64,000 nucleotides of DNA from IMG/VR virus record IMGVR_UViG_3300020576_001727, positions 39,062 to 103,061 of that record. The stretch is one strand, 5' to 3'. Below the pieces are notes generated by a model. That model was not told the DNA's origin and searched no databases. It saw only the letters and a program-made list of their open reading frames with translations. Of the stretch, positions 6,635 to 36,594 are shown piece after piece. How positions within the stretch are numbered: the first letter of the stretch is position 1; every line of letters starts with the position of its first letter. This DNA is from a virus (lineage: Duplodnaviria > Heunggongvirae > Uroviricota > Caudoviricetes). A program made the position numbers and the translations under genes.

Positions 6635-6825
6635 TTGAACCAAAAGACGTAAAGAAAGGCGAAAGATATATCGATAATAACAACAATGTTATCGAAGTAA
6701 TCGGCGCTGGAAGCGACTCAATCTGCTTTGTGTGGGTGGCAGTCCCTTTTGATATGTTCTTGCAAGGCTGGACCAGTTACGTTCCATTTCTTGATGATAA
6801 CTGGTCCAAACTAGAAAAGCCTTAG
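6631..6825 (+). CDS. Hypothetical protein
   Basis: ATGA overlap. Its stop overlaps the convergent tape-measure stop. Confidence 0.6.
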   Translation: MIEPKDVKKGERYIDNNNNVIEVIGAGSDSICFVWVAVPFDMFLQGWTSYVPFLDDNWSKLEKP

Positions 6826-9800
6826 ACTTCATCGATCTTCGACCAATAGGTAGGCATATTGACAACTCCCGACACATGCGAGTCTCTTGCATTTGCCGGG
6901 TTTTGTCCTTTGCTTTGACGGTTGACGGCGGCAAGGCTTCCGGACATTCTTTTGTGAGTATTGCCTTGGACCGTGCCAACTTTTTCGTCTGGTTTAGGCA
7001 TAGCGGCTCTTGCCCGGGCAACTGACATTTCCCGTTCTTTTTCACGCTGTTTCTTCGCGTTTTCCTCTGTCTCTCTAGCTCGTCTTTCGATATCCTCCTG
7101 TCTAGGCGGAACAAGCGATTCGGCTTCCGTTGCCTTTTTCATCTTGCGAAACAATGGATGCTTTTCTAGTCCTGTTTGACCGGCAACCAATTCAAAATCG
7201 GGAACAAGCTTGCCGTTTTTGTCCAAGCGAAATTTCATCGCAGAAGGCTTCATCTTGACTACATCGGGAGTCGATTTCTTGGCTTCTGTTTCCTTTTTCC
7301 AAGTGGATAGATTGAAGCCGGATCGTTCTTTCCGCCCTTCAGCAGCGGCTTGGGCGACCCAACCATCGCCTTTTCCAGCCGAACCCCATGTTGCCTCTTT
7401 TCCGAAACCAACATGCAAGGTGTTTCCTCCCATATATTCATTACCCGCACCGATGCCGGTTGCTCCTGCTTTAGAAGCATTTCGGACAAAAGCTTGCATG
7501 ACAGCACGATCATCCGGATTGTTGAAATCCAGTTTCTTTCCACCTCGCCACAAGACAAGATCGGCAGCATTTCCATTATCGTGTCGAGTCGATCCTGTTC
7601 TTTTTCCTCGCGTGCCGATTGCATCTTGTCCGCCTGAAGTGACTTCGACCTTATCGATTCCCGATTGGCTTCCCGCATAATTCAGAACGTCTGATAGATT
7701 ATCAGAGATTGGCTTATCTCGGATTTTACCCTGATTGGACATTTGAACGAAAGAATTCGTCATTGGTTTGCTGGGGTTGACAGGATCGAATTTCTTGTTT
7801 GTCGAAATTCGCGCATCCGGATTCAGCAGAGTATCAAAGGTTGATTTGGACTTGTCCGATAGTTGTCCCGGTTGTGTCGCATATTCCTGATTTCGAGCAA
7901 GGTTGGCACGATAAGCGGAATCGATATCCGAAACCGACTTCTTTTGCAAAATCTGCCAAGTCGTATCCATTCCCATTCCCCCCAAACCGGAACGAATGTG
8001 TTCAGTATTGCCCGCTTTCAAATCCTCGTCCAGATTGCGTCCACCTGTTCGTCTTGCATAGTCTTTTTGGGCAAGGAAATAAGCGGCGCTATCCTGATTT
8101 TTTGCACTAAAGTCTGTAATTGGATTGTCTGGATTCTCTCGATTATAGCGACGAACAACGTCCTTCCATGTTGTCTTTGTGAACTGATAGCGTCCAGCCG
8201 CCGTGGAATCAGGAGTTCCGAAGATTTCAGGATGCTTTGACATGTCGGTAAATTTCTTGCCGCCGACAATCGTGTTGTAATCAGGCGATTCCCAATAGTT
8301 TCCGCCCGAAGTGGCATTACCCATTGCCAATGTGTCCAGAAACGCTCTTTGATGAACCGGCAGATTTGTATCAGCAGTCGAAATGACTCTTCCCTTGGCA
8401 TCTGTCAGCATCGAACCCGCGCCTTGACTGATTCCGGCATTTCGACTTTTGACGTTGGTAATGGTCGATTTCACGTCCTTTCCCGGCATCATTGGAGTAT
8501 TGGAGAACAAACGCGCTTCCGTTCTCTTTCTCTGTTCATACTGGCGAGCAATTGTCGAGGAAGGTCCGTTTCTTCCATCATTCTCCTGTCTCGGATCACT
8601 GGTTGAATATCCATTATACGAACCATCATAGGTTGTTCTTGGAGAGAAACCATTTCCTGAATATTGTCCGCTCATCTGTGGAGCAAGATACGTTCCCATG
8701 CCGGTATCGAACCCACCAAACAGACGCTTGTAACGAATGGAATTGGTTGGATTGATATTGTTGTCACCAAATCGATATTCGATATTATTGGACTGTCTCT
8801 TTTGAGGCATGAAATAGAAGGCTGAATCATCCGATGCATTCTGATTGGAGACAGACGGATTCTTGGGAGCGAATCTATTCATTCCATTTAGCATATTCTG
8901 GATTGTAGAAGGCTTGGAAACCGCCTTGTTTGGCTTCAGGAGGCGTCTTGGCTTAGGACCGGGAGTAAGACCTTCCAAAGCAGCCAATTCGCGCTGGTAA
9001 CGCTCTAAATCCTGTAGAGCCTTGGTATAACGGTTATGATATCTCTTTTGCCATTCGGGAGATTGGGACAGATGATAGGAAATGCCTTCACGAAGCACTG
9101 ATATTTTTTGCTTCAATTCAAGGATTTTTTGTTCTTTAATGGCATTATCAGGCTTAAGCATTCGTCTTGGCTTAGGACCGACTTCATCACTTGTTGCCAA
9201 GTTTGGAGGAGTCATTAATGGCGACAAATTAGTTCCGTTGAATTCTCTTTGACGAATGATTCGATCCAGAGAAGTATCACGTTCTCTTTCTTGGGAATGA
9301 CTTGGTGTCTTCTTGATGCCAAACAGCTTTTCCAACCCTTCGCGGTATTTCTTTTGATTTGCTACCTGTTCTTCAAAAGTATCACCGGGAGTATCACCAA
9401 GAGATTGAACACCTAACCCGAAAGAAGCCATCCAAGTAAATGCTCTTGCCATCAACCCAAGTTCCGCTCCGGTTGGCATTTTGAACCCCTTGCCTTTTTT
9501 ATTACCCGGAATGTCTAAATCAGGAAAAAAACTGGTTCCCGACCCTCTTGAAATATTCTTTGATAGTTTTTCCAGCATCTTATGAGTAGTGATACTGTAA
9601 TCAAGCAACTTATTAAGGCTTTTATTAGCCGAATCCAGCTTGTCATCTACTACGGCAATAGCTCTATTCGTATAATTTTGAGGATTGCTTATCTCTGTGC
9701 TGACGGCTTGACGAACTTCTCTTTCAATTTTGTCACCAAGCGCAAAAACGATGATTCTTGCCAGACGTTCAGGAGTGCTTTTTTGCCCCTTTGATGTCCC

Positions 9801-10010
9801 TCCTGCCATTGGTGCGCGTTGAATGGACGATGATTTTCCTGAATGATTGTCTCGCATCTGTTTGACGCGAGAAGACATAGCTTCACGATCGCGCCGAAGC
9901 ATTTCCGCTGCTTCTCTCGCATTTTCATCGATATCTCTCTGTTTTCGATCCTCGATAACGGCTTTCTTTTCGGCTCTTTTGTCGAGTAGGTATCTAAGGA
10001 ATTCGCTCAT
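6822..10010 (-). CDS. Tape measure / baseplate hub (gp29-like) with lambda-type lysozyme and M15-like peptidase domains
   Basis: 1062 aa immediately downstream of gp26/gp51. Lysozyme motifs AFLDTLA...ESPDYNTIVGG...STAAGRYQFTKTTW...NQD. Peptidase motif RHDNGNAADL...LHVGFG. Confidence 0.75.
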   Translation of the reverse strand: MSEFLRYLLDKRAEKKAVIEDRKQRDIDENAREAAEMLRRDREAMSSRVKQMRDNHSGKSSSIQRAPMAGGTSKGQKSTPERLARIIVFALGDKIEREVRQAVSTEISNPQNYTNRAIAVVDDKLDSANKSLNKLLDYSITTHKMLEKLSKNISRGSGTSFFPDLDIPGNKKGKGFKMPTGAELGLMARAFTWMASFGLGVQSLGDTPGDTFEEQVANQKKYREGLEKLFGIKKTPSHSQERERDTSLDRIIRQREFNGTNLSPLMTPPNLATSDEVGPKPRRMLKPDNAIKEQKILELKQKISVLREGISYHLSQSPEWQKRYHNRYTKALQDLERYQRELAALEGLTPGPKPRRLLKPNKAVSKPSTIQNMLNGMNRFAPKNPSVSNQNASDDSAFYFMPQKRQSNNIEYRFGDNNINPTNSIRYKRLFGGFDTGMGTYLAPQMSGQYSGNGFSPRTTYDGSYNGYSTSDPRQENDGRNGPSSTIARQYEQRKRTEARLFSNTPMMPGKDVKSTITNVKSRNAGISQGAGSMLTDAKGRVISTADTNLPVHQRAFLDTLAMGNATSGGNYWESPDYNTIVGGKKFTDMSKHPEIFGTPDSTAAGRYQFTKTTWKDVVRRYNRENPDNPITDFSAKNQDSAAYFLAQKDYARRTGGRNLDEDLKAGNTEHIRSGLGGMGMDTTWQILQKKSVSDIDSAYRANLARNQEYATQPGQLSDKSKSTFDTLLNPDARISTNKKFDPVNPSKPMTNSFVQMSNQGKIRDKPISDNLSDVLNYAGSQSGIDKVEVTSGGQDAIGTRGKRTGSTRHDNGNAADLVLWRGGKKLDFNNPDDRAVMQAFVRNASKAGATGIGAGNEYMGGNTLHVGFGKEATWGSAGKGDGWVAQAAAEGRKERSGFNLSTWKKETEAKKSTPDVVKMKPSAMKFRLDKNGKLVPDFELVAGQTGLEKHPLFRKMKKATEAESLVPPRQEDIERRARETEENAKKQREKEREMSVARARAAMPKPDEKVGTVQGNTHKRMSGSLAAVNRQSKGQNPANARDSHVSGVVNMPTYWSKIDEV

Positions 10011-13246: not shown

Positions 13247-14098
13247 ATGCCAATAATCTCATATCGAAACAGTTTTGTCGATACCAATAATCCCAATTTT
13301 GCAATATTGAACGCGGAAGCGAAGCAGATTCCGCAAATATACTCGTTTCCCAAAGGTGTGAACGAGTTTCCAGTGCCGGGACAACCTTCGAATCACTCGA
13401 TCATCTTCACTGCCAATGAATTCACCAATTTCTTTACGTCTGGCACGCTGGCAACAGCCGAAGAACGAGACAAGAACAGAACGGCTCGTATCAAGAAAGC
13501 GAAAGCAGCATTTTCGTTCTATATGCCAAATCCAATGATATTCACCAACACAATCGATTATATGCAAACAAATCTGACAGATAGATTGTTGTCGGGAGTG
13601 CAATCAGCCGTGAACAATAAGGGATTCGACACTCTCTTGAACGATGGGCAAACAGCAGTCAAGTTGGCTGGTTATTCGATCAATCCCAAGGTCGAAGTCA
13701 TTTTTGACAATATTCCCCAACGTCAATATTCATTCGAGTTCATGTTCGCGCCTGTTAATGAAGCGGAGACAAACGAGCTAAAGAAGATGATTCAACAATT
13801 GCGAGCAACAGCCGCTCCAAGACGTTCTGTTGATGGTAAAGGCATTGGACCGCAATTGTTGAACACATTCGTTTGGTCCGCTCCTGATACCATTGACGTT
13901 CAATTCTTTCATAATGGAGTGGAGAACACGAATATACCAAAGATCGATGAATGCGTTATCGAGCAAGTTGACGTTGACTATTCCCCGGGTGGGCAATGGG
14001 TCACTTTTCGTAATGGTTATCCAGTCCAGATCAGAATGAGACTTAACTTGCGTGAACGTGATCCTAATGACCGCGCAATGATCGAAAGAGGTTACTAA
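13247..14098 (+). CDS. gp48: Baseplate tail tube cap
   Basis: NPKVEVIF....RQYSFEFMFAP.NEAE...P..F.VQF...CVIEQVDVDYSP. Confidence 0.85.
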   Translation: MPIISYRNSFVDTNNPNFAILNAEAKQIPQIYSFPKGVNEFPVPGQPSNHSIIFTANEFTNFFTSGTLATAEERDKNRTARIKKAKAAFSFYMPNPMIFTNTIDYMQTNLTDRLLSGVQSAVNNKGFDTLLNDGQTAVKLAGYSINPKVEVIFDNIPQRQYSFEFMFAPVNEAETNELKKMIQQLRATAAPRRSVDGKGIGPQLLNTFVWSAPDTIDVQFFHNGVENTNIPKIDECVIEQVDVDYSPGGQWVTFRNGYPVQIRMRLNLRERDPNDRAMIERGY

Positions 14099-14766
14099 TG
14101 TTCTTTGGATATTTTCCTGTCACAACATATGGAAAGAATACAGTAACCGACATTCTTTTTCGAACCAAGTTCAAGGATATCGTCAAGAACGAGAATGTTG
14201 TCTATTATCTCTATTCAGTGAGAGAACAAGACACGCCTGAATCAATTGCCTTGAAATATTATGGTGATCCTCTAGCTCATTGGGTTATTCTCTATGCCAA
14301 TGATATTGTCGATCCTTATTACGATTGGGTTCTGACAGGCAAGAACTTTCACAACTTCATTCGAGACAAATACGGCTCGATTGAGTGGGCAAAGACCAAC
14401 ATTCACCATTACGAGAAAGTAATTCGTTCTCGCGATACCAATTCAAACAAGTGGACAGAGACGAGACAATACGTCGATTTGGCAGATGCCAGAACAAACG
14501 ATGCTGAAGACCTGCCTTACGATACCTATTCAGAACTTGCCGAAACCTATTATCCTAACATATCCGGGCTATTCAAGAATGGAAGTGCAGTTGAAATTGT
14601 TATTTCCAAGGAAGCAATTACCTATTATGATTGGGAAAATGCAGAGAACGAGAAGAAAAGAAATATTCGTCTAATAAAGAAAGAGTATTATCCTCAAATT
14701 CAATCGGAAATGAATAGCTTTGTTCAGGGACGCAACACATTCTTTCGTGATTTGCGAGGCTTCTAA
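14098..14766 (+). CDS. gp53: Baseplate wedge subunit
   Basis: MFFGYFP..Y...TDIL.R, LysM-like E.DTPESIA.KYYGD...HWVILYAN.IVDPYYDW, IHHYE. Confidence 0.9.
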   Translation: MFFGYFPVTTYGKNTVTDILFRTKFKDIVKNENVVYYLYSVREQDTPESIALKYYGDPLAHWVILYANDIVDPYYDWVLTGKNFHNFIRDKYGSIEWAKTNIHHYEKVIRSRDTNSNKWTETRQYVDLADARTNDAEDLPYDTYSELAETYYPNISGLFKNGSAVEIVISKEAITYYDWENAENEKKRNIRLIKKEYYPQIQSEMNSFVQGRNTFFRDLRGF

Positions 14767-15992
14767 TGTCTATCATCAATCCCGAAGCTTTAACTGGATT
14801 TACAATCGATACAGACGCCAATATCGATCTTCTGAAAGAAACCAGTATAACAGGCATTTCGATCATTGAATCGCTTATGTCACCTACCATCGAATTCAAT
14901 ATCGAAGTCCAGTCCTATCGTCACAATGGCTATGTCAAAGACCTTGACAAGTATGCAGGAGCTAATCTGTTTTTTCGAGCAAAAAGACCGATCTTGGAAA
15001 AATTCGGTTATATTCCTGATTTCGCATTTAATGGCAAGGTCTTTCGAGTATCGGAACGAAAGCCAATATCAGATCAGGTCGATTCATTCTCAATCATCGG
15101 TTCAGATGAAACAGTCTTTCGCAATGCGTCCCGTCGAATGTCCAAGTCTTGGAAATGCGTTCCGCCTCATGTCATAGTTGCCGATGCTCTGAAAGGTTGT
15201 GTCGGTGTTCCCAAGTTGATTGTGGAATCGGCTTCGCCAGTTCGCACCTATTTTGCTGAAAATATTCATCCTTATCAGGTCGTCGCGCAACAATCAGACG
15301 TTGCCTTGGCAGGGGGAAACGATCCGTCTTTTCTTCATTATATGACAACGGAAGATTTGGTTGGAACACACAGATTTGAATCCCTGTATGGAATGACTCG
15401 AAAGAACCATATCGCGGAATTCGCATATTCCGAACAAGGTCGAGTTGCGCAAGTCTTTGAGAATCCAGACTCGATTTTGAGCTATGAATTTCCTTGTGAT
15501 TTCGATCTTATTGCCGATTTGATGAATGGAGTGGACGGCTCGAATGACTTCAATTCTTTGTTGCTGATTAATCCGTTCAATGGCATTCATTCGATCATTG
15601 GAGGAAATAATTCCCAATGCGGAATGGGAGGCGGGGAAGGTGACGTTTCTTTCACCAATCAGGGTTCAGCCGCAAGTGAGCCGAATTGCGAAATCGATGT
15701 AGAGCGACACAAGCTGAAGAGAACGGCAAGACTGTCTCTATTGGATGCGGACAAGGTTGCTCTAAGAATGACAGTTGGATTTCATCCGAGCTTACACGTA
15801 GGGAAGATGATCAAGGCTTCTTTCCCAAACAAGATATATAAATCGACAGACCAAGTTGAAGTCAATGATGATTATGGCACTGGTTATTATTTGATTTCGG
15901 CTTTGACTCACACTTTCAAGACTGATGGAATGGCGACAACAACTATCGATTGCTTGTCCAAATCGGTCGGAAATGGACAGACATTAGGATAA
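14766..15992 (+). CDS. Baseplate hub protein (gp27-like)
   Basis: 408 aa between gp53 and gp5. C-terminal LHVGKMI...GTGYYLISALTHTF as in tail-D/gp27 hubs. Confidence 0.6.
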   Translation: MSIINPEALTGFTIDTDANIDLLKETSITGISIIESLMSPTIEFNIEVQSYRHNGYVKDLDKYAGANLFFRAKRPILEKFGYIPDFAFNGKVFRVSERKPISDQVDSFSIIGSDETVFRNASRRMSKSWKCVPPHVIVADALKGCVGVPKLIVESASPVRTYFAENIHPYQVVAQQSDVALAGGNDPSFLHYMTTEDLVGTHRFESLYGMTRKNHIAEFAYSEQGRVAQVFENPDSILSYEFPCDFDLIADLMNGVDGSNDFNSLLLINPFNGIHSIIGGNNSQCGMGGGEGDVSFTNQGSAASEPNCEIDVERHKLKRTARLSLLDADKVALRMTVGFHPSLHVGKMIKASFPNKIYKSTDQVEVNDDYGTGYYLISALTHTFKTDGMATTTIDCLSKSVGNGQTLG

Positions 15993-15995
15993 TAA

Positions 15996-18800
15996 ATGAG
16001 TAATATCGAATATTTCATTGTTGAAGGCGGTCATGATGGTGATCCAGACCCGGAAGAAACCGGACGTATTCGCGTCCGTCAAATGGGCAAGCATGGTCAA
16101 AACGTCAAGACCGAACACCTTCCTCTGAATCAAACTCTCAAATCAGACGCATCCGAATTTCATCGCCCACCGACTCCGGGGACGATCTTGGCTGGTTATA
16201 TTCCCAAAGGTGCCGAACATACTGGATATTCTCACTTGCTTGGTTCGTTCGCAACCAAACAGGAATCGGGTGCTTCCGTTCCCGGCAATACAACTTTGCC
16301 TTTCTTGGACAAAGCACAAAACATCGAATTGAAAATCAAGCTTCCTCCCAACATCAAATCCATTCTGGAAAGCAACAGAACAGGATTGGAGAAGTTCAAG
16401 AAAGAGATTGAAGAAAAAGGGGAGAAATTTAAACAGGCGACTCTTCGCGGTTTGCCTTCCGATGGTGCAGTCTTTGCTTTGTCGGGAATTCGAAATACTC
16501 CATTCAAGAACATTTCAACTGCTATAGACAAAGCAGCCTCGCAAATGACCAGTTCCAAATTAGCTGGTTTAAGCGGTCTTGTGTCTAGTCTTGACTTGAA
16601 CAGTCTTATCTCTCAATTGATTTCTCAATTAGATTTGCCTGACACAATGGTCCAGACTTTGGAAAGCTTTGTCAAGACGGCAAGTGGAGATATCAATTCG
16701 GTATCGCCTCCCGGTGGAGCTTCCCTTGGCAATCTGATTAACCAAGAAAAATTCCTGACTAAAGCACTGGACTTGATGAAAGATGTCAAGACAACCGGGG
16801 AATTGTTGCGAGTAATTCAGACCTTACAGCATCCGGACACATTGGCTGATACGCTTTCGGATATCTCTAATGTTTCAATCAATTCCGATTCGATCTTTGG
16901 AGCAATCAAACAGGAAATCAACTCCAAAGGCGAGATAGTCGAAGTCGCCAATGATTTTATTGAAAATATCAAGAATGCATTGCAAAGCCTATTGAGTTCG
17001 ATCCCCGGAACCGGCGTTGACGGAGACAGTTTCTTTACGTCTGAAGGAACTCCTATTCAGGATTTGATTCAAAGAATGAAGGATACTGCCAAGGCGACCG
17101 AACTAAAGGAAGCTGTTGAAAAGGTATCGAGTTCCCTGAATTCTCGTAAACAAAAGCAGAGAACGAACAACAACAGCGCGGGCAAAGGCGCAACCCAAGA
17201 TATCATTTTCAAGGCGAAACAACTTATTGCTCGCGATGGAAGAGTCATTCCTTTCTTTCCAACAACCAAGAATGGCGTATCAGGAACGACTACATCGGTA
17301 GGAACGCCGGGAAGTGATCCTTCTCCTGTCCCAAGTTCGAACGTAGCAGCGGAAGCATTGATTGCAGCCATTGCGGCGTTTGACAAGGCAAACAGCGCCT
17401 TCGACACTGCAAATTCGGCGGTTGGGTCATCTTCCGGTCAAGCTGGCAATACAGCCAATTCGGCTCTTTTGGTAGCGCAAGCGGCTTTCGGAAAGGCAAA
17501 TAGTGCTAATGATATAGCGGTTTCGGCTTATTCGACAATTAACACGGAATCGTCTCGTTTAACCAGTGCGTTTGGTCAAGCCAACAATGCATTGTCAGTC
17601 GGTCAAGCAGCCTTTGCCAAAGCTAATACTTACGTGGCGTCAGATGCTTCAAATACGCTTAATACAGCTATTGGAGCGTTTACCAAAGCGAATACAGCTT
17701 CGAATACTGCTATTGGAGCATTTGATAAAGCCAATGCGGAAGCAACTCGCCTAACTTCAGCTTATGCTACAGTGAACGCCGAATCAACTCGTCTAACCAG
17801 TGCTTATGCAACTGTCAATGCTGAATCGTCTCGTTTAACATCTGCATTTGGTCAAGCCAATACCGCGAATCTGGTAGCAAAAGAAGCTTCCAACGTCGCG
17901 ACTGGATCATTTGCCAAAGCCAACGCGGAAGCAACTCGATTGACTTCTGCTTACGCTACGATCAATTCGGAATCAATTCGCCTGACTTCGGCTTTTGCGG
18001 CGGCAAATGCTAAGATGAATCCTGATTTTAGTAATGCAAATACAGTGGTTCCTAATACAAATATGCGCGCACCATTACGCGAAAACATAAAACAAATATT
18101 GGATTGGAACGAAGCTAATACAAATGGTTGGTATGCAGGAGCAAATTCAGCCAATGCACCAACACAGACGGCGGCTGACGATTGGTATGTTGGAATGGTG
18201 ACAGCATATTCTAACGATTATACAGAACAGGTTGTTTATAGTCTTTTGAACGGCGGAACGGCGACACCGTCCGCCAATACATATTCTTATCGAAGAACAC
18301 AACGTAATTCGGTTTGGGGTGATTGGGTAAGAATACTTCGATCCCAAGACGAAATTCGCACGGAAGCTTATTCTAACGCGGCTGGTGAAAGAACTCGTTT
18401 GACTTCTGCATACGCAGCCGCAAACGGAACATATTCCGATTCCGGTTATTTTACATCGATTGTGACGCCTCAATCAGGAAGTATTGTCTCTTATTCAGCC
18501 AATGGACATTTCAAGAGAATCGATCTTGAAACAGGATTTTTCTCTATCAATGTCGCCATTACCAACAAAGGAACGGCGAATGGCGCAGCTTTCTGTAACG
18601 TTCCTTTCGTCGCGGCGGATACATTCTATAATGAATTTGCAGGAAGACGAACGGGTGATGGTGCAATGTTGCAAGGACAAATCAATCCAGCCTCGAATTC
18701 TTTGATCATATTTGTTTATGACAATTCATCACCTTTCGCCACTGGAAATCTTATGTATCGAATGTCTGGCGTAGTCAGAACACAACCATTTACAGGATAA
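15996..18800 (+). CDS. gp5 N-terminal OB-fold fused to a helical region, an Ala/Asn coiled-coil stalk, a knob and a receptor-binding tip
   Basis: N-terminal DPDPEETGRIRVRQMGKHG...LP. 14-residue repeats (AEATRLTSAYATVN) at about 17340-18015. Knob-like ANTNGWY...YRRT....WGDWVRI. C-terminal tip domain ending MSGVVRT. Confidence 0.7.
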   Translation: MSNIEYFIVEGGHDGDPDPEETGRIRVRQMGKHGQNVKTEHLPLNQTLKSDASEFHRPPTPGTILAGYIPKGAEHTGYSHLLGSFATKQESGASVPGNTTLPFLDKAQNIELKIKLPPNIKSILESNRTGLEKFKKEIEEKGEKFKQATLRGLPSDGAVFALSGIRNTPFKNISTAIDKAASQMTSSKLAGLSGLVSSLDLNSLISQLISQLDLPDTMVQTLESFVKTASGDINSVSPPGGASLGNLINQEKFLTKALDLMKDVKTTGELLRVIQTLQHPDTLADTLSDISNVSINSDSIFGAIKQEINSKGEIVEVANDFIENIKNALQSLLSSIPGTGVDGDSFFTSEGTPIQDLIQRMKDTAKATELKEAVEKVSSSLNSRKQKQRTNNNSAGKGATQDIIFKAKQLIARDGRVIPFFPTTKNGVSGTTTSVGTPGSDPSPVPSSNVAAEALIAAIAAFDKANSAFDTANSAVGSSSGQAGNTANSALLVAQAAFGKANSANDIAVSAYSTINTESSRLTSAFGQANNALSVGQAAFAKANTYVASDASNTLNTAIGAFTKANTASNTAIGAFDKANAEATRLTSAYATVNAESTRLTSAYATVNAESSRLTSAFGQANTANLVAKEASNVATGSFAKANAEATRLTSAYATINSESIRLTSAFAAANAKMNPDFSNANTVVPNTNMRAPLRENIKQILDWNEANTNGWYAGANSANAPTQTAADDWYVGMVTAYSNDYTEQVVYSLLNGGTATPSANTYSYRRTQRNSVWGDWVRILRSQDEIRTEAYSNAAGERTRLTSAYAAANGTYSDSGYFTSIVTPQSGSIVSYSANGHFKRIDLETGFFSINVAITNKGTANGAAFCNVPFVAADTFYNEFAGRRTGDGAMLQGQINPASNSLIIFVYDNSSPFATGNLMYRMSGVVRTQPFTG

Positions 18801-18807
18801 TGAAGAT

Positions 18808-19419
18808 ATGACAGAAAAATGGAATGAACCGGAAGATGCTCGCACTAAAGGCGGGACGTATCCGAATTACAACATAAAGCGAACGCCATCGGGTCATACG
18901 ATCATGATGGACGATACGGAAGGCGCGGAAAGTATCACTATCCAACATCGTTCGGGTTCAATGATTCAGATGCATCCAAATGGAACTGTTCATTTCAGAA
19001 ACAATGGAGACAAGATCGAAGTCGTCTTGGGAGACGGCAAGATGAAGATAACCGGATCAATGGATATTTCCGTTGACGGCGGCGGAAGTCTGAACGTTGA
19101 AGGCGATTATGACATGACAGTCCAAGGCAACGTCAATACAGTCGTCAACGGCAATCAGAAGACAGTCGTTAACGGTGCTTCCGAAACTGTTGTGGGAGGA
19201 AATCAGACAAGCGTTGTCAAAGGAAATCAGCAAACATCTGTGCAAGGAAACGTTGAACAACTGGTTGATGGTGCAACCAATATTCAATCGGAAGGCGGAA
19301 TAGCCTTGCACGCATCGGGAGCGGGAATGTCTCTCGCGTCTGAAGGCAATATGGCTATCGACTCCGGGGGTGATCTATCGGTTATGACAACCGGCAACGT
19401 TCACTTTAACGAAGCTTGA
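18808..19419 (+). CDS. gp5: gp5 C-terminal beta-helix (needle), encoded separately
   Basis: YPNYNIKRTPSGHTIMMDDTEGAESITIQHRSGSMIQMHPNG followed by VxGN 8-residue repeats. Confidence 0.88.
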   Translation: MTEKWNEPEDARTKGGTYPNYNIKRTPSGHTIMMDDTEGAESITIQHRSGSMIQMHPNGTVHFRNNGDKIEVVLGDGKMKITGSMDISVDGGGSLNVEGDYDMTVQGNVNTVVNGNQKTVVNGASETVVGGNQTSVVKGNQQTSVQGNVEQLVDGATNIQSEGGIALHASGAGMSLASEGNMAIDSGGDLSVMTTGNVHFNEA

Positions 19420-19669
19420 TTTCGTAAATATCTTCTTCCATGAAAGTCTTGTGTTCAAAAGACCCGCGAAACGGCGAATTGTTTCCTGCCGTATATCGAA
19501 CTGTTCTTCCCCCAAATTCAATATCTTCGGCTTGTAAAGCATATTCGAGATATTTCTTGATGGCGACTTGTGTGTCATACATCGATCCATCATGATTTTC
19601 GCAAACAATAGTCGCGAAAATAAAATATCCCGGTTCTGGATATGTCAAGGTGATAACCGCTTTTTTCAT
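19406..19669 (-). CDS. Hypothetical early protein (inverted cassette)
   Basis: 87 aa, ATGA-coupled to the upstream gene. Confidence 0.65.
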   Translation of the reverse strand: MKKAVITLTYPEPGYFIFATIVCENHDGSMYDTQVAIKKYLEYALQAEDIEFGGRTVRYTAGNNSPFRGSFEHKTFMEEDIYEIKLR

Positions 19670-19824
19670 TCTTCTTTCTCTTTGTTAAAAGATCGAACTA
19701 TCTCCCGTCTCATTCCGGGGGATAAACTCTCCCATTCATCAACCGAATATCCATTGATTGGTGCAGGATGAACGGCTTTGTTGTAAGTGAAGAATTTTCG
19801 AGAAATGTCATAATTAGGACTCAT
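19666..19824 (-). CDS. Hypothetical early protein, 52 aa
   Basis: MSPNYDISRKFFTYNKAVHPAPINGYSVDEWESLSPGMRREIVRSFNKEKEE. Its stop overlaps the next ATG. Confidence 0.55.
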   Translation of the reverse strand: MSPNYDISRKFFTYNKAVHPAPINGYSVDEWESLSPGMRREIVRSFNKEKEE

Positions 19825-19861
19825 CACCTATTCGTCCGTTCTTTCATGATCATCAATCCTT

Positions 19862-20074
19862 TCAATCAAGTTCAATGAACAGATATTCAATGTCCGCGCC
19901 GTGATATTCCTCTAGCGCAAGCATTGCCTGTTCTTTGGTTTCAAAACCTTCAACGGCTACAAGTTCATAATCGTAAAAATGGGCGATGACAAACTTATGA
20001 TTCGGATTTCCGGTTCCCGCACCATATTCCGCATCGATGTTTCGAGCGGTGCCGATCTTTACATAATCCATCAT
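19862..20074 (-). CDS. Hypothetical early protein
   Basis: GGAGA SD. 70 aa. Confidence 0.65.
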   Translation of the reverse strand: MMDYVKIGTARNIDAEYGAGTGNPNHKFVIAHFYDYELVAVEGFETKEQAMLALEEYHGADIEYLFIELD

Positions 20075-20159
20075 TTGTCTCTCCTAAGCCAAAACGATTT
20101 GGCGATTGCGGATGGTAATGAAACCAATCCAATCGGCGGGTTCAAAGGCGTCTGGCATC

Positions 20160-20345
20160 TTAATATCCAATGTCAATGTTGCGAATCTGCCAAGGTCCGT
20201 TCTTCTGGTGAAGAGGATCATTGGCGACGACTTCATCCAGACGCTTTTCGGCGGCGAGCTTGACGCCATTCCAATTGAAATGCTCGAAATGAATTACAAA
20301 AGTGTAGTTCTTTTCGTTGAAGGCGATTGCGCGGAAATTAACCAT
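20160..20345 (-). CDS. Hypothetical early protein, first gene of the inverted cassette
   Basis: MVNFRAIAFNEKNYTF...IDIGY, starting just downstream of the promoter. The ORF-track start at 20507 lies upstream of the promoter. Confidence 0.6.
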   Translation of the reverse strand: MVNFRAIAFNEKNYTFVIHFEHFNWNGVKLAAEKRLDEVVANDPLHQKNGPWQIRNIDIGY

Positions 20346-20372
20346 TGCTCTATCTCTCTCAATTTCATGATT

Positions 20373-20401
20373 AACATAATCCAAATCGAAACATTTGTCA
20401 A
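20373..20401 (-). promoter_or_regulatory. Early promoter of the inverted cassette
   Basis: TTGACA (20401-20396), N17, TATGTT (20378-20373). Confidence 0.75.
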
Positions 20402-20411
20402 GCCTATGTTC

Positions 20412-20419
20412 AATAAATA
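20412..20419 (+). promoter_or_regulatory. Late promoter re-starting the baseplate operon
   Basis: AATAAATA upstream of the PAAR gene SD (AAGGA). Confidence 0.6.
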
Positions 20420-20441
20420 CTCTATAAAAAGGAAGACTAAA

Positions 20442-20732
20442 ATGCCCGGTGCCCACAGACACGGCGATTTGAGAACATGCGGTGCCACAACTATTGTTTC
20501 CGGTCAATCTTCCGTTTTTTGTAACGGCAAGTTATGGGCGGTTGAAGGTGATCCGAACACGCATGGTTCTGGCGGTTTGATCGCAACCGGAAGCAAGGTT
20601 TTCATTAACGGCAAGAAAGTCATTGTGAACAGCCAAGACCCGGCAAATCCTGACAACAGATGTCCAGACGAAGGCGGGGAACATTGCTCGCCCGATACAG
20701 CGGCGGGGAGTGGAAATGTATTCTGCTATTAA
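20442..20732 (+). CDS. gp5.4: PAAR spike-tip protein (gp5.4-like)
   Basis: MPGAHRHGD.RTCGATT...VFCNGK..AVEGDPNTHG...VFINGK. The true start is 20442 (SD present). Confidence 0.9.
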   Translation: MPGAHRHGDLRTCGATTIVSGQSSVFCNGKLWAVEGDPNTHGSGGLIATGSKVFINGKKVIVNSQDPANPDNRCPDEGGEHCSPDTAAGSGNVFCY

Positions 20733-27172: not shown

Positions 27173-30100
27173 ATGGCCAAAGTCAATATTTCCAACTCTC
27201 AAATCGTAACAACTGAAATGAGAAATAGTCCCTATTATAACGATTGGGACGAAGATAAGAACTATCATGCAATGGTATTTCGTCCTGAATTTGCTGTTCA
27301 GGCGCGCGAACTATCTCAACTTGGTTCTATCTTGCAAAACCAGATCGAAAGATTTGGCCAACATATGTTTGTTAACGGAACTCCTGTTTTGGGTGGCGGA
27401 ATCGACTTCGCGGCTGTTACAACACTCAATCTTGCCTCCACTTATAATGGCGTCGATATCGATGTCAATGATTTTGCAAACACTCGCGTTCAATATTCCA
27501 GCAATACCAATGTTCTAGGTGAAGTTTGGGGAGTAAGTGACGCCAATGCAAACGAGCCGCCGAACATTCATTTGAGATATACAACAGCCGAAGATTTTGG
27601 ACCGGGCGACACTATCAAGGTCGCGGGGCAAAGCGTCTATGCCAACGTAATTTCTTCTGCAAATGCGGTTTCCAATGGGTTTGCTGCTTTCATCTATGAC
27701 TCCGTATATTTCGTGGACGGATATTTCATCAAAGTTCCAAAGCAGACAATCATTGTCGAAAAATATCGTTATGCAGGAGCGAACGTCAAGATCGGTTTGG
27801 AAAAGAACAAGACAATTGTTACTGAAAATGACGATTCCAGCTTGCTCGATCCCGCTGCTGAATCTTCCAACTTTGACGCGCCGGGAGCGCACCGTTTCAA
27901 GTTTGAATTGAACCTGACAACCAGAACACTCGAATCAGATGATTTGGAAGAATTCATCGAACTGGCACGATTTGAAGATGGTGTCTTGGTTAATAAAGTC
28001 GAAAATACCAAGTATGCCGAACTTGAAGAAATGTTGGCACGTCGCACTTATGATGAATCTGGAAACTATACAGTTCGTCCTTTCATCGGTGACGTTCGCG
28101 AAAAAGACGCCGACGAAGTTTATTTCACTTTATCGCCGGGTAAAGCTTACATCAACGGTTATGAATATGAAACCATTGCCGATACTCGCCTGACAGTTCC
28201 AAAAGCAAGAGTGAAAGCCAACACAGTCGAAAACTATGACTTGAACATGAATTATGGCAACTATGTCATTGTCGATAATGTGGCAGGAACATTTGATGGA
28301 ACGACTATGGAATTGGTCGATATGCATTGCGTTCCGGGTCATCTGATCGATTTTTCCGGTTCAACAGTTTATTCCAAAACAAAGATTGGAACGGCTCGCG
28401 TTGTTGACATGAACTTTTATGGCGGGGACGCAAATACAATCCTACGCAAGCACGAATTGTATTTGACCGATACTCGTTTTACGTCTCTGTCCAGCAATCT
28501 TGCTTCTTCTGCTTCATTGTCCCAAGTCACATTCCAGTCGGGTCAAGTCTCTCCACAACATCACGCTTACGTGAACAATACAATTCGTCTGATCAGCGGA
28601 CCCGGGGCAGGATATGTTGGTTTGATCACTTCCTATAACGGAACATCAAGAATTGCAACGGTTAATCCGCCATTCCAGACACAACCAACAAACGCAACCA
28701 ATTATCGTATCGAATTCGCATTTCAAGATGTCGAATCCTTTACCAAACATACTTCCTATACATCGGGAGCAACTTCCAACTCGAATTGCAATATAACACT
28801 TCTGAACAAGCGTTATAGATTTGGACAGGAAGGCATCGATTATGGAGCGCCGGTCATTATCAGCGAACCAAGCTTGAACAAGTTGATTTTCCCTTATCCT
28901 AACGAATTCATTGCGAATAATATCGTCACTGACTCCTACCTATATCGAAGAAAATATAGCGGTGTCCAGTTTACGGACGGTGTTTCGGCTGCAATCACGG
29001 CGGGAGCTACTGAAGACTTCGAAGGGGCTACAGCTTCATCCGGCATTGCCTCGACAGTCATGGATAATTTCCTGATTTTCTGTGAAAATTCACAGGGATC
29101 GACAAGAGCGAATGGTGAACAGATTTCTGCATCTGTCACAATTTCCGGTTCACCTGAACAGGCGACTTTCAATACTGCTTTGGGAACGGCTGACACGTTT
29201 ACCGCGACAATCTTTGCCAAAATGGAAAATACAGGCGCGGGAGCGGTTCCAAGAGTCAAGACTTTGGTTCTGGCAAACACCAAGATTTTTGCTAGACAGG
29301 GTTCGGCTAACGCATCAATTCTTTCGTCTTATAATTCAAACACTCACGTTTTCCTAAATGACGGACAGGTTTTGATTTCAAATCCTTCCAAGTCAACAAC
29401 CGTCAAACAAAGTTTGTATATTTCAGACGTTCAAAGCATCGTTAAAATCTATAATTTGAATGGCGCAACATTAAGTGGTGGCGCGAATCTTCAATCATTT
29501 GCAGACGTGACAAGTTATTATTCGTTTGATAATGGACAACGCGCAAGCTATTATGATCATGCTTCTATTACACTTAAGCCGGGTTATAATGCACCAAAAG
29601 GCGCATTGCTTGTTTGCACTCGTTATTACAAGTCGGGTGGAGATACTGGATATTTCAACGTCGATTCCTATCCAAGCTTGGACGAAGACATTACGGAAGA
29701 AACAGTCAACATCGGAACCGGTTATGCCTTGATTCCTACTTTCGAGAATATTCCTCTAAGAGACGCAATCGACTTCAGACCGGTTCGTTTGAATGCAAGC
29801 GGCACGACTCCAAACTTCTCTTTGGTTGGTATCAAGACTCCTATTCCAGCAACAGATTTACAGTCTAGTTACTCCTATTATTTGGGAAGAAAAGACTTGA
29901 TTGTTGCAATGCCAAACAGACAGATCGAATTGATTCAGGGTGAGCCTGATTTGAATCCAAAATTCCCTCCTGTGCCAGCAACGGGAATGATTTTGTATCG
30001 TCTGACAGTGCCGCCTTATACTCTTAGCTATAGCAATGTCATTGCCCAATATGTGGAAAACAAACGATATACAATGCGCGACATTGGTTTGATTGATACT

Positions 30101-30838
30101 CGTCTAAAGAACGTCGAATATTACGTTTCTTTGAGTTTGTTGGAAAAATCAGCTTTTGATTTGAATATCACAGACCAAAACGGATTGCCTCGCACCAAAT
30201 ATGGAATTCTTGCTGAAAACTTCACCGGGCACGAACTAGGTGCATCTGATCGTGATGACTATGTTATTTCGGTCGATTTGCAAGGAAAAATCTATAATGG
30301 TCGCGCGGTTCCAACAACCAATATAGAATCATCGCAACTTCAGCCAATATCATATACTAACGTTAAGTTGACGGGTGGGCAGAAAGCAACTTTGACATAT
30401 AACGTTGCCTTTGGAATGGGTCAACATGCACCGACAAAAACAACAGACCCACAAGTTGTTGGGGATTTGACTGGTTATATTCGAACAATTCCAGAAGCAG
30501 ACGTTTATTACACGCCTAAAGTTTATGAAGTCAAGCCTCCTGTCGGCAATCCTCTTCCTCCGGGCGGGAAGCCACCGGGTGGCGGCGATGGCGGCGGCGA
30601 TGGAGGCGGCGGTGGTGGCGGCGGTGGAGGTCTATGGGATAGTGTTCCGAGAAACTCGATAACTCCTATCAGCGAACCAACGGTTGGACCGGAAATAGGA
30701 ACTGGTGACACAGACCCAACCGAACCGACCGAAGCTTTGCCGCCAAGCCCATATACAAATCCTGTGGGTAAGCCGTCCGCTGCGATTCCTGTCATTCAAC
30801 CAATTCGCGGACAAATTGCCAGTGACCCTAACGGTTAA
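27173..30838 (+). CDS. VrlC-like (DUF4815-type) baseplate/fibre attachment protein, N-terminal part
   Basis: SPYYNDWDEDKNY...FRP.FAVQARELSQL...LQNQIE.FG, PGAHR, LARRTYDESGNY, ENKRYTMRDIG....R.KN.EYY..LSLLE. Confidence 0.8.
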   Translation: MAKVNISNSQIVTTEMRNSPYYNDWDEDKNYHAMVFRPEFAVQARELSQLGSILQNQIERFGQHMFVNGTPVLGGGIDFAAVTTLNLASTYNGVDIDVNDFANTRVQYSSNTNVLGEVWGVSDANANEPPNIHLRYTTAEDFGPGDTIKVAGQSVYANVISSANAVSNGFAAFIYDSVYFVDGYFIKVPKQTIIVEKYRYAGANVKIGLEKNKTIVTENDDSSLLDPAAESSNFDAPGAHRFKFELNLTTRTLESDDLEEFIELARFEDGVLVNKVENTKYAELEEMLARRTYDESGNYTVRPFIGDVREKDADEVYFTLSPGKAYINGYEYETIADTRLTVPKARVKANTVENYDLNMNYGNYVIVDNVAGTFDGTTMELVDMHCVPGHLIDFSGSTVYSKTKIGTARVVDMNFYGGDANTILRKHELYLTDTRFTSLSSNLASSASLSQVTFQSGQVSPQHHAYVNNTIRLISGPGAGYVGLITSYNGTSRIATVNPPFQTQPTNATNYRIEFAFQDVESFTKHTSYTSGATSNSNCNITLLNKRYRFGQEGIDYGAPVIISEPSLNKLIFPYPNEFIANNIVTDSYLYRRKYSGVQFTDGVSAAITAGATEDFEGATASSGIASTVMDNFLIFCENSQGSTRANGEQISASVTISGSPEQATFNTALGTADTFTATIFAKMENTGAGAVPRVKTLVLANTKIFARQGSANASILSSYNSNTHVFLNDGQVLISNPSKSTTVKQSLYISDVQSIVKIYNLNGATLSGGANLQSFADVTSYYSFDNGQRASYYDHASITLKPGYNAPKGALLVCTRYYKSGGDTGYFNVDSYPSLDEDITEETVNIGTGYALIPTFENIPLRDAIDFRPVRLNASGTTPNFSLVGIKTPIPATDLQSSYSYYLGRKDLIVAMPNRQIELIQGEPDLNPKFPPVPATGMILYRLTVPPYTLSYSNVIAQYVENKRYTMRDIGLIDTRLKNVEYYVSLSLLEKSAFDLNITDQNGLPRTKYGILAENFTGHELGASDRDDYVISVDLQGKIYNGRAVPTTNIESSQLQPISYTNVKLTGGQKATLTYNVAFGMGQHAPTKTTDPQVVGDLTGYIRTIPEADVYYTPKVYEVKPPVGNPLPPGGKPPGGGDGGGDGGGGGGGGGGLWDSVPRNSITPISEPTVGPEIGTGDTDPTEPTEALPPSPYTNPVGKPSAAIPVIQPIRGQIASDPNG

Positions 30839-33581: not shown

Positions 33582-33797
33582 ATGACAGATTTTGCAAAAA
33601 TTGAAAATCTTGAAGGCTATGTCAAAGACCTTAGAACTGGTGCAATTGTCCTTCAAGATAGAAATATTGAAAAGAAAATGAATCTCGAAAGAGAGAAAAT
33701 TGAAAAAGAAATGAAGGCTCGGAATGAAATTGTGGAATTGCGTAAAGAAGTCCAAGAAATTAAAGAACTATTAAAGAGATTGATCAATAATGGCTAG
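33582..33797 (+). CDS. Small coiled-coil protein
   Basis: KDLRTGAIV...LRKEVQEIKELLKRLI, a type often found before fibre genes in T4-like phages. Confidence 0.65.
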   Translation: MTDFAKIENLEGYVKDLRTGAIVLQDRNIEKKMNLEREKIEKEMKARNEIVELRKEVQEIKELLKRLINNG

Positions 33798-35370
33798 TTT
33801 TTCCAATGTAAGTCTGGCAACGTTAGTTACAAGCTGGATTATCGAATTCAATAAGATAGCAAAATATCTTACTGATCAAGTCTATACGACTTCGATTAGC
33901 GATTCGTCTAATTCAAACATTGCAACAGCCGCTGCCGTCAACACTTTGCATGATAAAGTTATTTCGTCCTATGCGGTGGCAAACAGTGCTGCCAATACTT
34001 CTGTTGGTGCTTTCGCTTCTCTCAATGCAGAAACAATTCGTTTGACTTCTGCATTTACTCAAGCTAATACTGCAAATCTTGTGGCGAATGAAGCATCGAA
34101 CGTTGCGATAGGCGCATTTGCAAAAGGTAATACAGAAGGTTCTAGATTAACTTCTGCATATGCAACCGTCAATGCCGAAACGACTCGCTTGACTTCTGCA
34201 TTTACTCAAGCTAATACTGCAAATCTTGTGGCGAATGAAGCGTCGAACGTTGCAATAGGATCGTTTTCAAAGGTTAATACAGAAGCAACTCGTCTGACTT
34301 CGGCGTTCGCGGATGCCAACTCTTCTAATGTTCGATCAATTTCGGCGTTTGATAGAGCAAATACAGCCAACACAACTGCGGTCGCGGCATTTGCTTATGC
34401 CAATTCTCTTTATGGCGGTTCTGTTGCTGCCGCCTTTGAGCAAGCAAATACTGCGAATCTTGTTGCCAAGGAAGCTGCCAATGTTGCTACTGGTGCCTTT
34501 ACCAAAGCCAACACAGAAGCAACTCGATTGACTTCTGCTTTTGCGGTGGCGAATACTGCCGATTCGATAGCAGATCAAGCAACTTTAACCGGTCAAGGGG
34601 CTTTCAATAAAGCCAATACGGAATCAACTCGCCTAACTTCAGCCTTTGCACAAGCAAATACGGCAAATACAAATGCTGGACAGGCTCTATTGGTCGGTCA
34701 AGGGGCTTTCAATAAAGGCAACACAGAAGGTTCTAGATTGACTTCCGCCTATGCAACCGTCAATACGGAATCAAATAGACTTACTTCCGCCTTTGCAAAA
34801 GCAAACTCTGCTCAAAGTGACGCTGCGACTGGACTTATTCAATCCAGTTCGGCATTCGATATAGCTAACAACGCGTTCGACATATCCTCGGTTGTTTATG
34901 ATTTTCTATTTCTACCAAATCCGTTTCAAACACCTCTTGATAATCTTTATGCTGCAAAAGGTTCCACCGGAACATGGACTCCGGAATTCGTCGGGCAGAC
35001 CACACCCGGGACATTCACTTATACGACTCAAGTAGGAACATATGCAAAAATTGGTAATATCGTTCTCGCATCTTTTGTCTGCACGGTGAACGTTCAATCA
35101 GTTGCCGCTGTTGGAACGTTAATAATTAATGGTTTACCATTCAACTCAAATGAAGGAACATTAAGATACGCCGGGTCCGTAGGCGCAGTCTCCGGCGTGG
35201 GAACACTGCCTACTAACTGGGCGGGCTGGGCACTTAGATTGCACGGCGCTGCTTCTTTGGGTGTATTATATTATAATTCGACAACAGGCGAGACATCAGT
35301 TGCACAAGGTAGTGTCGTCGCTTCCAGTTTTTCTATGTCCGGCACAATCGTTTATAGAACGGCTTCATAA
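33790..35370 (+). CDS. Tail fibre / whisker with a 14-residue coiled-coil repeat stalk and a receptor-binding tip
   Basis: N-terminal W...FN anchor, ANTANLVA/ETTRLTSAF repeats, C-terminal GTWTP...GTYAKIGNIV...GLPF...MSGTIVYRT. Confidence 0.75.
   Translation: MASFSNVSLATLVTSWIIEFNKIAKYLTDQVYTTSISDSSNSNIATAAAVNTLHDKVISSYAVANSAANTSVGAFASLNAETIRLTSAFTQANTANLVANEASNVAIGAFAKGNTEGSRLTSAYATVNAETTRLTSAFTQANTANLVANEASNVAIGSFSKVNTEATRLTSAFADANSSNVRSISAFDRANTANTTAVAAFAYANSLYGGSVAAAFEQANTANLVAKEAANVATGAFTKANTEATRLTSAFAVANTADSIADQATLTGQGAFNKANTESTRLTSAFAQANTANTNAGQALLVGQGAFNKGNTEGSRLTSAYATVNTESNRLTSAFAKANSAQSDAATGLIQSSSAFDIANNAFDISSVVYDFLFLPNPFQTPLDNLYAAKGSTGTWTPEFVGQTTPGTFTYTTQVGTYAKIGNIVLASFVCTVNVQSVAAVGTLIINGLPFNSNEGTLRYAGSVGAVSGVGTLPTNWAGWALRLHGAASLGVLYYNSTTGETSVAQGSVVASSFSMSGTIVYRTAS
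34042..34260 (+). repeat. Near-perfect tandem duplication with a 147-bp (49-aa) period inside the fibre gene
   Basis: TTGACTTCTGCATTTACTCAAGCTAATACTGCAAATCTTGTGGCGAATGAAGC starts at both 34042 and 34189. Confidence 0.9.
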
Positions 35371-35708
35371 TGACGAAATATCTAGACCTTTATCTTGACC
35401 AAGGCGCTGATTTTGAAAAGAATATTCGTCTCTTGGACGAGTCAACCGGCAATAGCATCAATATTGCCGGTTACTCTTTTACGTCGAAAATCAGAAAAGG
35501 TCCGTTGACGACCAATACGGCAGGAGTTTTTACAACTTCGATTGTCAATGCATCAAATGGAACATTCCGTATCTCGATAAACTCTGCCAACACAAGCAAT
35601 ATCGAATTTGGACGTTATGTCTATGATATTATTCAGACAAATACGTCCAACACCAAAACTAAAATTTATGACGGGATAGTGATTGTCTCGCCGGGAGTAT
35701 CGCGATGA
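35370..35708 (+). CDS. Small structural adaptor (BppU-like fold)
   Basis: DLYLDQGADF......D.STG..INIAGY.F.SKIRK...GRYVYD...IYDG.V.VSPGV. Confidence 0.65.
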   Translation: MTKYLDLYLDQGADFEKNIRLLDESTGNSINIAGYSFTSKIRKGPLTTNTAGVFTTSIVNASNGTFRISINSANTSNIEFGRYVYDIIQTNTSNTKTKIYDGIVIVSPGVSR

Positions 35709-36451: not shown

Positions 36452-36491
36452 GCGATTAGAATACTAGGAGGTAGATTGTTCCAAAAATCCA

Positions 36492-36590
36492 ATGAACAAT
36501 CCTGAATATAGAGAGAAAGTTCGACTATCTAAATTGGGAAGAAAACTAACTGTTATGCCAGATGGTTCTAGAAAATATATAAAGGAATAA
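36492..36590 (+). pseudogene. Remnant C-terminal tail of a GIY-YIG/NUMOD homing endonuclease
   Basis: MNNPEYREKVRLSKLGRKLTVMPDGSRKYIKE aligns with the end of the 52168-52731 endonuclease (KMRLAKTGTKRQYLPDGSFRMIK), 12 of 23 residues identical. Confidence 0.7.
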
Positions 36591-36594
36591 TACA

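Follow-up and report, generated by a model that had tools for sequence, protein, structure and literature searches.

A predicted gp5-type OB domain joined to a coiled-coil fibre module beside a separate needle gene in a T4-like metagenomic phage

The usual view of contractile-tailed phages leaves host recognition to fibres at the rim of the baseplate and gives the central spike a purely mechanical or enzymatic part. One long open reading frame in an uncultured tailed virus (Caudoviricetes) raises the question of whether a spike can also carry a fibre of its own. The window, that is, the whole stretch of DNA analysed here (64,000 nucleotides), covers positions 39,062 to 103,061 of the IMG/VR record IMGVR_UViG_3300020576_001727, and the frame in question, P0001, encodes 934 residues. 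An initial annotation, made from the sequence without database searches, had read P0001 as the OB-fold half of a split gp5 spike protein fused to a complete fibre. We find that P0001 is one gene, that its N-terminal part is predicted to be a divergent gp5-type OB domain followed by a domain in the place of the T4 lysozyme, and that the rest has the features of a fibre. We consider it reasonably probable that the fused product forms one trimeric host-recognition fibre at the centre of the baseplate, beside the needle. The parts of P0001, the gene that follows it and a paralogous fibre gene are as follows.

15996..18800, + strand: P0001, 934-residue OB-domain/fibre fusion; open frame with no internal stop
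15996..16469, + strand: predicted gp5-type OB domain, residues 1-158 (core 1 to ~90 plus a hairpin); AlphaFold2 predicted local distance difference test (pLDDT) 84-94, VIA, Foldseek and profile matches
16470..17270, + strand: conserved mixed alpha/beta domain, residues 159-425, in the slot of the T4 lysozyme; AlphaFold2 secondary structure
17271..17345, + strand: linker rich in glycine, serine, threonine and proline (G/S/T/P), the fusion junction, residues 426-450; read from the sequence
17346..18023, + strand: Ala/Asn/Ser/Thr-rich putative coiled coil with a 14-residue repeat, residues 451-676; autocorrelation and a 42-nucleotide tandem repeat
18060..18362, + strand: knob domain, residues 689-789; likeness to an Arthrobacter phage minor tail protein
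18381..18428, + strand: single further coiled-coil repeat, residues 796-811; same 14-residue motif as the main array
18429..18797, + strand: beta-rich end domain (presumed tip), residues 812-934; strands predicted with low confidence
18808..19419, + strand: P0002, 203-residue gp5C-like beta-helix needle; PF22178, PF06715, phrog_430
33790..35370, + strand: P0028, 526-residue stand-alone coiled-coil fibre, paralogous to the fibre part of P0001; shared repeats

The record holding the window is metagenome-derived, 170,409 bp long and has direct terminal repeats. Its major capsid protein shares about 60% identity with the homologues in Pelagibacter phage Mosig, Methylophilales phage Melnitz and T4-like cyanophages, which makes the source phage an uncultured myovirus of the T4 superfamily. 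The sequencing runs that contain close relatives bear the labels activated sludge, wastewater and seawater.

The reality of the long frame was assessed from independent assemblies and from related genes. Contigs of four sequencing studies, mapped on positions 15900-19500, bridge the junction region at 17150-17350 with substitutions only (one of the bridging runs matches the window exactly and is possibly where it came from). None carries a stop or an indel there, so the stop or frameshift near 17200 that the initial annotation had named as the sign of an artefactual fusion is absent. The only indels among the bridging contigs are in-frame and lie near 18652. In run X5, contigs are missing over 17715-18803, a gap to which no weight is given. 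The same architecture recurs in P0004 (933 residues, 98% identity), P0005 (840 residues) and P0006 (980 residues), with a further 841-residue fused copy on another contig, and relatives at about 60% identity also keep a single reading frame. The contigs of the fused relatives share one gene order: gp48, gp53, a putative hub gene of about 410 residues, the fusion gene and a 202-residue needle gene. Between the P0001 and P0004 genes, the ratio of non-synonymous to synonymous differences (pN/pS) is 0.08 overall. It stays at 0.04-0.06 over the N-terminal part and coiled coil and reaches 0.12-0.21 in the two distal domains, the knob and the end domain; the highest value, 0.21, belongs to the end domain (residues 812-934). 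Because the ratio lies at 0.04-0.21 in every segment, the whole 934-residue frame is under purifying selection. No slippery heptamer was found at the junction, and a scan of the frame found no late-promoter-like motif inside it. The 934-residue frame is a real gene, predicted to encode one polypeptide.

The N-terminus of P0001 begins with the pattern V-E-G...DP...GR-RVR...G-H, in register with T4 gp5. With residues 1-430 as query, an exhaustive HMMER search gave 159 relatives, and an alignment of 61 members of this family (58 of them unfused) served as the input of an AlphaFold2 model of the ~430-residue N-terminal part, here called the foot. The model has a mean pLDDT of 84, with residues 1-90 at 84-94, and contains at its N-terminus a five-stranded OB barrel, which can be superposed on the solved OB domains of spikes: that of the phage P1 spike (VIA Z 11.0, root-mean-square deviation 2.4 over 78 residues, model residues 1-85), that of a Streptomyces contractile injection system spike (Z 9.8) and that of Klebsiella phage KP1 gp5 (Z 9.6, deviation 3.0 over 109 residues, model 1-158 against chain 7-130). 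Further VIA matches at Z 8-10 are the spikes of cyanophage A-1(L), PVC, Algoriphagus and AFP, and VgrG; every one of the nine chains at Z of at least 8 is a spike protein from a contractile system. Foldseek likewise ranks gp5 chains first. The N-terminus therefore models as the spike-type OB fold that had been proposed from its opening residues.

Profile comparisons bear on the same assignment. Against PDB sequences, the only matches of the foot-family profile are five T4-type gp5 sequences, at weak E-values of 0.033-0.17 and in register (P0001 residues 12-100 against gp5 10-106). The profile also matches Pfam-verified Gp5_OB domains in Mosig (9.8e-9), Melnitz (1.1e-6) and Stenotrophomonas phage DLP_6 (2.2e-4), these E-values being per genome. 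Of the 61 family members, one matches PF04717 (Phage_base_V), and phmmer of P0001 against PDB sequences gave chance matches only. PF06714 had no match over the whole genome at E <=1, and the 170-kb sequence yielded no further OB candidate. Because the Pfam Gp5_OB model fails on P0001, its N-terminus is best filed as a divergent gp5-type OB fold as modelled, not as a member of the Pfam family.

The domain that follows gives the foot its second half. In the AlphaFold2 model, residues ~100-425 consist largely of helices, plus two beta hairpins or sheets, so that the earlier description of about 350 helical residues after the OB fold was roughly right. VIA-wide and Atlas shape searches with the 430-residue model, dominated by the OB part, found no fold match beyond that part, and an Atlas look-up with residues 100-430 gave no usable feature match, with structure rows at a TM score of ~0.3. 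Columns conserved in at least 75% of the foot family are mainly glycine and proline, the only charged ones being E140 and R360, a pattern that suggests a role in structure and not in catalysis.

Nearly all of the 159 foot relatives are stand-alone proteins of ~400-440 residues, typically ~415 (P0029-P0176), homologous to P0001 over residues 1 to ~425 with E-values down to 1e-128. The 58 unfused members end at positions equivalent to P0001 residues 403-430 (median 423), which is where the G/S/T/P linker begins; the check proposed in the initial annotation, whether relatives end the OB gene at about 400 residues, thus comes out positive, at ~400-430. Longer family members carry inserts such as DUF4214, not fibres. 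The ~415-residue proteins of uncultured T4-like phages share with P0001 the OB domain, the middle domain and the 409-residue gene upstream, but they stop where the linker of P0001 starts and have no fibre. This large family of ~415-residue proteins, until now 'hypothetical', can be annotated as putative spike feet.

Past the foot, the composition of residues 426-450 agrees with the G/S/T/P linker described before, and the array of about 225 residues of 14-residue repeats was recovered at residues ~451-676. The periodicity of residues 446-690 is that expected of a coiled coil, with autocorrelation peaks at lag 14 (0.31) and lag 7 and a hydrophobic repeat of 3.55 residues; the DNA of this stretch contains a 42-nucleotide tandem repeat. 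At the coiled-coil rise of ~0.15 nm per residue, 225 residues would measure ~33 nm. The repeats share 54-72% identity with repeats of the P0028 fibre, and P0001 matches phrog_13173, 'tail fiber protein', at E 1.3e-4. The knob-like domain and the single repeat after it are likewise in place, at residues 689-789 and ~796-811. The knob is 37% identical to residues 269-368 of a 710-residue Arthrobacter phage minor tail protein, with E-values against Arthrobacter phage minor tail proteins of 2e-9 by tblastn and 2e-16 in pairwise comparison. In a word-index search, the knob and tip (residues 685-934) matched only P0004. The proposed resemblance of the terminal domain to the tip of the fibre encoded at 33790 did not hold up (BLAST E 0.66; hhalign probability 0.1%), and profile-profile comparisons of the end domain with the tips of P0028, P0005 and P0006 were not significant.

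A homotrimer model of residues 625-934 scored 0.90, against 0.00 for the best of three controls. In the calibration, made with two copies and not three, 21 of 30 proteins solved as same-chain pairs and none of 23 solved as single chains came up to that mark. The homotrimer runs agree in at least 66% of contacts, with partner pLDDT of at least 70; the contacts are heptad-spaced in residues 627-676 and three-fold in the knob and end domain, where they are tight at 876-928. The predicted trimeric state of the fibre is supported by this model, not proven by it.

The closest paralogue of the fibre module lies elsewhere in the window. P0028 is encoded directly upstream of homologues of gp13, gp14 and gp15 (35705-38450), the place that wac (fibritin) holds in T4, and it ends in a globular C-terminal domain of ~150 residues in place of a foldon. 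P0028 may therefore belong to the neck, as a whisker or an analogue of fibritin, and not to the baseplate; its standing as a 'peripheral' baseplate fibre is unproven. Comparison among the fused proteins shows that the distal parts are replaceable: P0005 is 72% identical to P0001 over the foot, lacks the knob and has an unrelated tip, and in P0006 the knob is replaced by another intermediate domain. P0005 and P0028 align over 431 residues including the tip (E 2e-73). Because the P0005 tip is ~50% identical to the P0028 tip, distal modules have been exchanged between the hub-fused gene and the one for the stand-alone fibre; such exchange is typical of receptor-binding proteins.

A quick maximum-likelihood tree built from the foot domains (midpoint root, for drawing only) unites the three fused proteins in one group (Shimodaira-Hasegawa-like approximate likelihood ratio test 100), sister to the unfused 424-residue P0029 (support 99) and nested among unfused members. 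The simplest reading would be a single fusion event, in which a P0028-like fibre that had shed its own N-terminal anchor was joined to the end of a foot gene. No other fused forms were found among longer proteins, and an IMG/VR search with the four-sequence alignment returned only unfused relatives, at <=30% identity.

The position of P0001 within the late operon bears on where its product would sit. Other genes around it are as follows.

13247-14098: gp48-like tube cap, first gene of the late operon
14098-14766: gp53, late operon
14766..15992, + strand: P0003, 408-residue probable gp27-like hub protein, directly upstream of P0001; phrog_350 'tail protein', E 1.4e-19
20442..20732, + strand: 96-residue PAAR-motif protein (spike tip); PF05488 E 2e-6, phrog_281

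The operon, which runs on through P0001 and P0002, is tightly packed, neighbouring genes overlapping or lying 3-7 nucleotides apart; gp25 and gp6 follow it, and the late-promoter-like motif CATAAATA stands upstream of the first gene. The beta-helix is encoded outside P0001, in the next gene (18808-19419), so that the OB domain and the beta-helix occupy separate genes, as in a split gp5. P0002 matches PF22178 (Gp5_trimer_C) at E 2.4e-7, PF06715 (Gp5_C) at E 5.5e-5 and phrog_430 at E 2.5e-28, and tblastn aligns it with the C-terminal half of gp5 in 1754 phage records. By these matches P0002 is the needle, in agreement with the separate downstream needle gene proposed at the outset. Pfam found no lysozyme or other hydrolase family in P0001, and PF00959 (Phage_lysozyme) had no match anywhere in the 170,409-bp genome; the absence of a lysozyme domain had been correctly noted.

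P0003 is the likely gp27 equivalent by position: a gene of 409-410 residues stands there in all relatives' contigs. A language-model look-up placed it nearest to the named Atlas clusters Phage_GPD, GpP/Gp44-like and the XkdQ hub families, which is a lead only. P0003 has no Pfam match, phmmer against PDB sequences gave chance matches only, and tblastn against phage records gave none. A 96-residue PAAR gene is also present in a relative's contig. Its ATG is preceded by GGAAG and an ATAAATA late-promoter-like motif, and the program-made list of open reading frames shows it only within a 208-residue frame that starts with TTG (20106-20732).

For T4, the point of reference is the (gp27-gp5*-gp5C)3 cell-puncturing complex (PDB entries 1K28, 1PDL and 5IV5). 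Kanamaru et al. are said to have described in 2002 how the gp5 OB domains lie under the gp27 trimer and the lysozyme domains outside the spike; they reportedly also showed that gp5 is cut between the lysozyme and the beta-helix and that gp5* dissociates during penetration. T4 gp5 resembles P0001 in having an N-terminal OB domain in register, a domain after it and a needle that ends up as a separate chain (in T4 by cleavage), and a PAAR-type tip protein is also encoded near P0001. The two differ in that T4 gp5 has a lysozyme, whereas P0001 has another domain and ~500 further residues as a fibre.

On our preferred reading, residues 1-425 of P0001 would be the foot of a split gp5 spike, made of the OB domain and a domain of ~270-330 residues in the place of the lysozyme. 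A fibre module from a P0028-type gene would be attached to it through a flexible linker at the point where other family members end, and the maturation cut of T4 would be replaced in this phage by a gene boundary. Because the T4 lysozyme domains sit outside and the cut corresponds to a gene boundary here, the C-terminus of the foot would lie on the outside of the spike. Three flexible linkers would then meet beside the needle and, because the spike is a trimer, carry a single trimeric fibre per virion. Such a fibre would reach well past the gp5C-like needle and its PAAR tip, make the first or an early contact with the host surface and add recognition at the baseplate centre; it would be shed together with the foot protein as the spike is forced through the envelope, in the manner of gp5* in T4. 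We infer the hub location from homology and gene order, and with it one off-axis fibre per virion and the binding of a receptor. The most detailed version is more tentative, and we rate its chances as somewhat below even: a single trimeric receptor-binding fibre rising from a gp5* foot beside the needle, with the symmetry of the hub broken, recognition coupled to the release or firing of the puncturing device, and the fibre discarded on penetration. A coiled coil running up into the tail tube was considered as well and rejected by reasoning, as the OB domains in T4 seal the channel of the hub and the distal domains of P0001 have the character of external fibre modules.

Several points weigh against this arrangement. 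A trimeric fibre cannot share the axis of the needle, and linkers of ~25 residues must converge beside it, breaking the three-fold symmetry. A cleavage could remove the fibre. The AlphaFold2 monomer model of residues 685-934 has a mean pLDDT of 39.8, and its end domain has no recognisable fold. The OB assignment draws mainly on predicted structure and transitive profile matches, the profile E-values against PDB sequences being weak; Pfam gave only sub-threshold noise on P0001, with neither PF06714 (Gp5_OB) nor PF04717 (Phage_base_V) at E <=0.1. The gp27 identity of P0003 is a lead, and the binding of a receptor is predicted from the evolutionary pattern of the distal domains.

Other explanations were weighed against the same evidence. 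The fibre could serve assembly, as a trimerisation clamp that starts the hub and is then cleaved off at the linker, leaving a mature virion without a central fibre. Some fibre C-termini are indeed removed as intramolecular chaperones, T4 gp5 itself undergoes a maturation cleavage between lysozyme and beta-helix, and the junction here is an exposed G/S/T/P linker at the family's natural end; in the trimer model, coiled coil and end domain are held by strong three-fold contacts, and ~150 relatives function without any fibre. A pure clamp, however, needs neither a knob nor exchangeable distal domains. The distal parts of these proteins differ among close relatives and are common to a stand-alone fibre and to siphophage tail proteins, as in receptor-binding proteins, and a Pfam search found no protease or autocleavage motif, so that we regard this explanation as unlikely. 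Marginally less probable still is a fibre that stays in the virion without binding a receptor, acting like fibritin as a sensor or tether that holds fibres, senses the environment or spaces the baseplate. It would fit the T4 wac position of P0028, just upstream of gp13/14/15, and the build of both proteins, each a long coiled coil with a C-terminal globular part; yet fibritin-type C-termini are small and conserved, whereas the distal domains here vary, are swapped between relatives and, in the knob and tip, have the highest pN/pS of the protein.

Two further explanations concern the foot and the frame themselves. If the foot family were not the base of the central spike, the OB domain would anchor the fibre elsewhere in the baseplate or tail and another protein would plug the hub. 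The failure of the Pfam Gp5_OB model on P0001 leaves room for this, as do the commonness of OB folds (ribosomal and proteasomal OB proteins reach VIA Z 5-7) and the unproven gp27 identity of the neighbouring P0003. We nevertheless think it improbable: every VIA match at Z of at least 8 is a spike, the only PDB profile matches are gp5, the profile matches true Gp5_OB domains in related phages, the genome offers no other OB candidate, and the hub-foot-needle gene order is conserved. That a lost stop codon or a frameshift in assembly or sequencing joined two genes is the least credible of all, and very nearly negligible. The record is metagenome-derived, but no evidence supporting such an artefact was found, and the contigs bridging the junction in four studies, the single frame of the ~60%-identity relatives and the purifying selection on both sides of the junction contradict it.

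Several published and annotated systems share parts of this anatomy. A split gp5, with gp5.2 as the OB protein and gp5.1 as the beta-helix protein, has been published for Sinorhizobium phage phiM9 and Rhizobium phage P10VF (PMC4621102). What stands of the initial annotation is thus the anatomy, an OB half of a split gp5 fused to a fibre; the split by itself is not new. Genes annotated as 'Gp5 N-terminal OB domain' are present in Methylophilales phage Melnitz and Pelagibacter phage Mosig. All four phages have separate OB and needle genes, belong to the T4 superfamily and show the same late baseplate neighbourhood as the phage of P0001. Their OB proteins, however, are short (~346-361 residues in Melnitz and Mosig), end after a small domain and have no coiled-coil fibre, and Pfam Gp5_OB matches them and not P0001. 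In the OB protein of Melnitz-3 (MZ577098.1 76363-77403), Gp5_OB is followed by a weak match to VanY (D-Ala-D-Ala carboxypeptidase; E 1.1e-4, below the cut-off), which suggests a different cell-wall enzyme in the lysozyme slot of Melnitz.

Central fibres are also carried by siphophage hub proteins, namely lambda gpJ, Tal of the TP901-1/SPP1 type and T5 pb3-pb4, and extended ('evolved') VgrG proteins occur in type VI secretion. By analogy, these resemble P0001 as trimeric central proteins extended in the same chain, near the axis, by a C-terminal functional module. In siphophages, though, the fibre comes after a gp27-like hub domain and there is no needle, whereas the N-terminus of P0001 is predicted to be an OB foot and not gp27-like; in evolved VgrG the extension comes after the beta-helix, whereas in P0001 it comes after the OB/foot module, alongside a separate needle. 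A limited full-text literature search found no description of a gp5 OB-fibre fusion.

Some observations concern the neighbourhood rather than the fusion itself. A megablast of window positions 14000-20000 against 50,697 phage records gave no match. The short spacer that separates the putative hub gene from the fusion gene (window 15994-15996) varies between strains: in one related contig, from run X4, it is 39 bases longer. A 1062-residue open reading frame on the - strand (6822-10010) adjoins the gp26/gp51 region and may, by position, encode the tape-measure (gp29-like) protein. The adjacent genes at 27173-30838 (1221 residues) and 30862-33579 (905 residues) match consecutive parts of phrog_358, covering profile positions 4-1108 and 1202-1580 of 2056, and look like a giant structural protein split in two.

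The fusion of an OB foot to a fibre gives a known component a domain architecture that is new. With a fibre covalently joined to its foot, the spike would bring host recognition to the axis of a T4-type baseplate, and the fusion raises the structural question of how a trimeric fibre coexists with a trimeric needle. The slot after the gp5 OB domain can be filled in different ways: T4 has a lysozyme there, Melnitz a putative VanY-like domain, the foot family another domain, and P0001 that domain together with a fibre. If the proposed arrangement is true, contractile tails would hold receptor-binding proteins in a third way, in addition to wedge-bound fibres and neck whiskers; the fusion also suggests a possible attachment site for binding modules in phage engineering.

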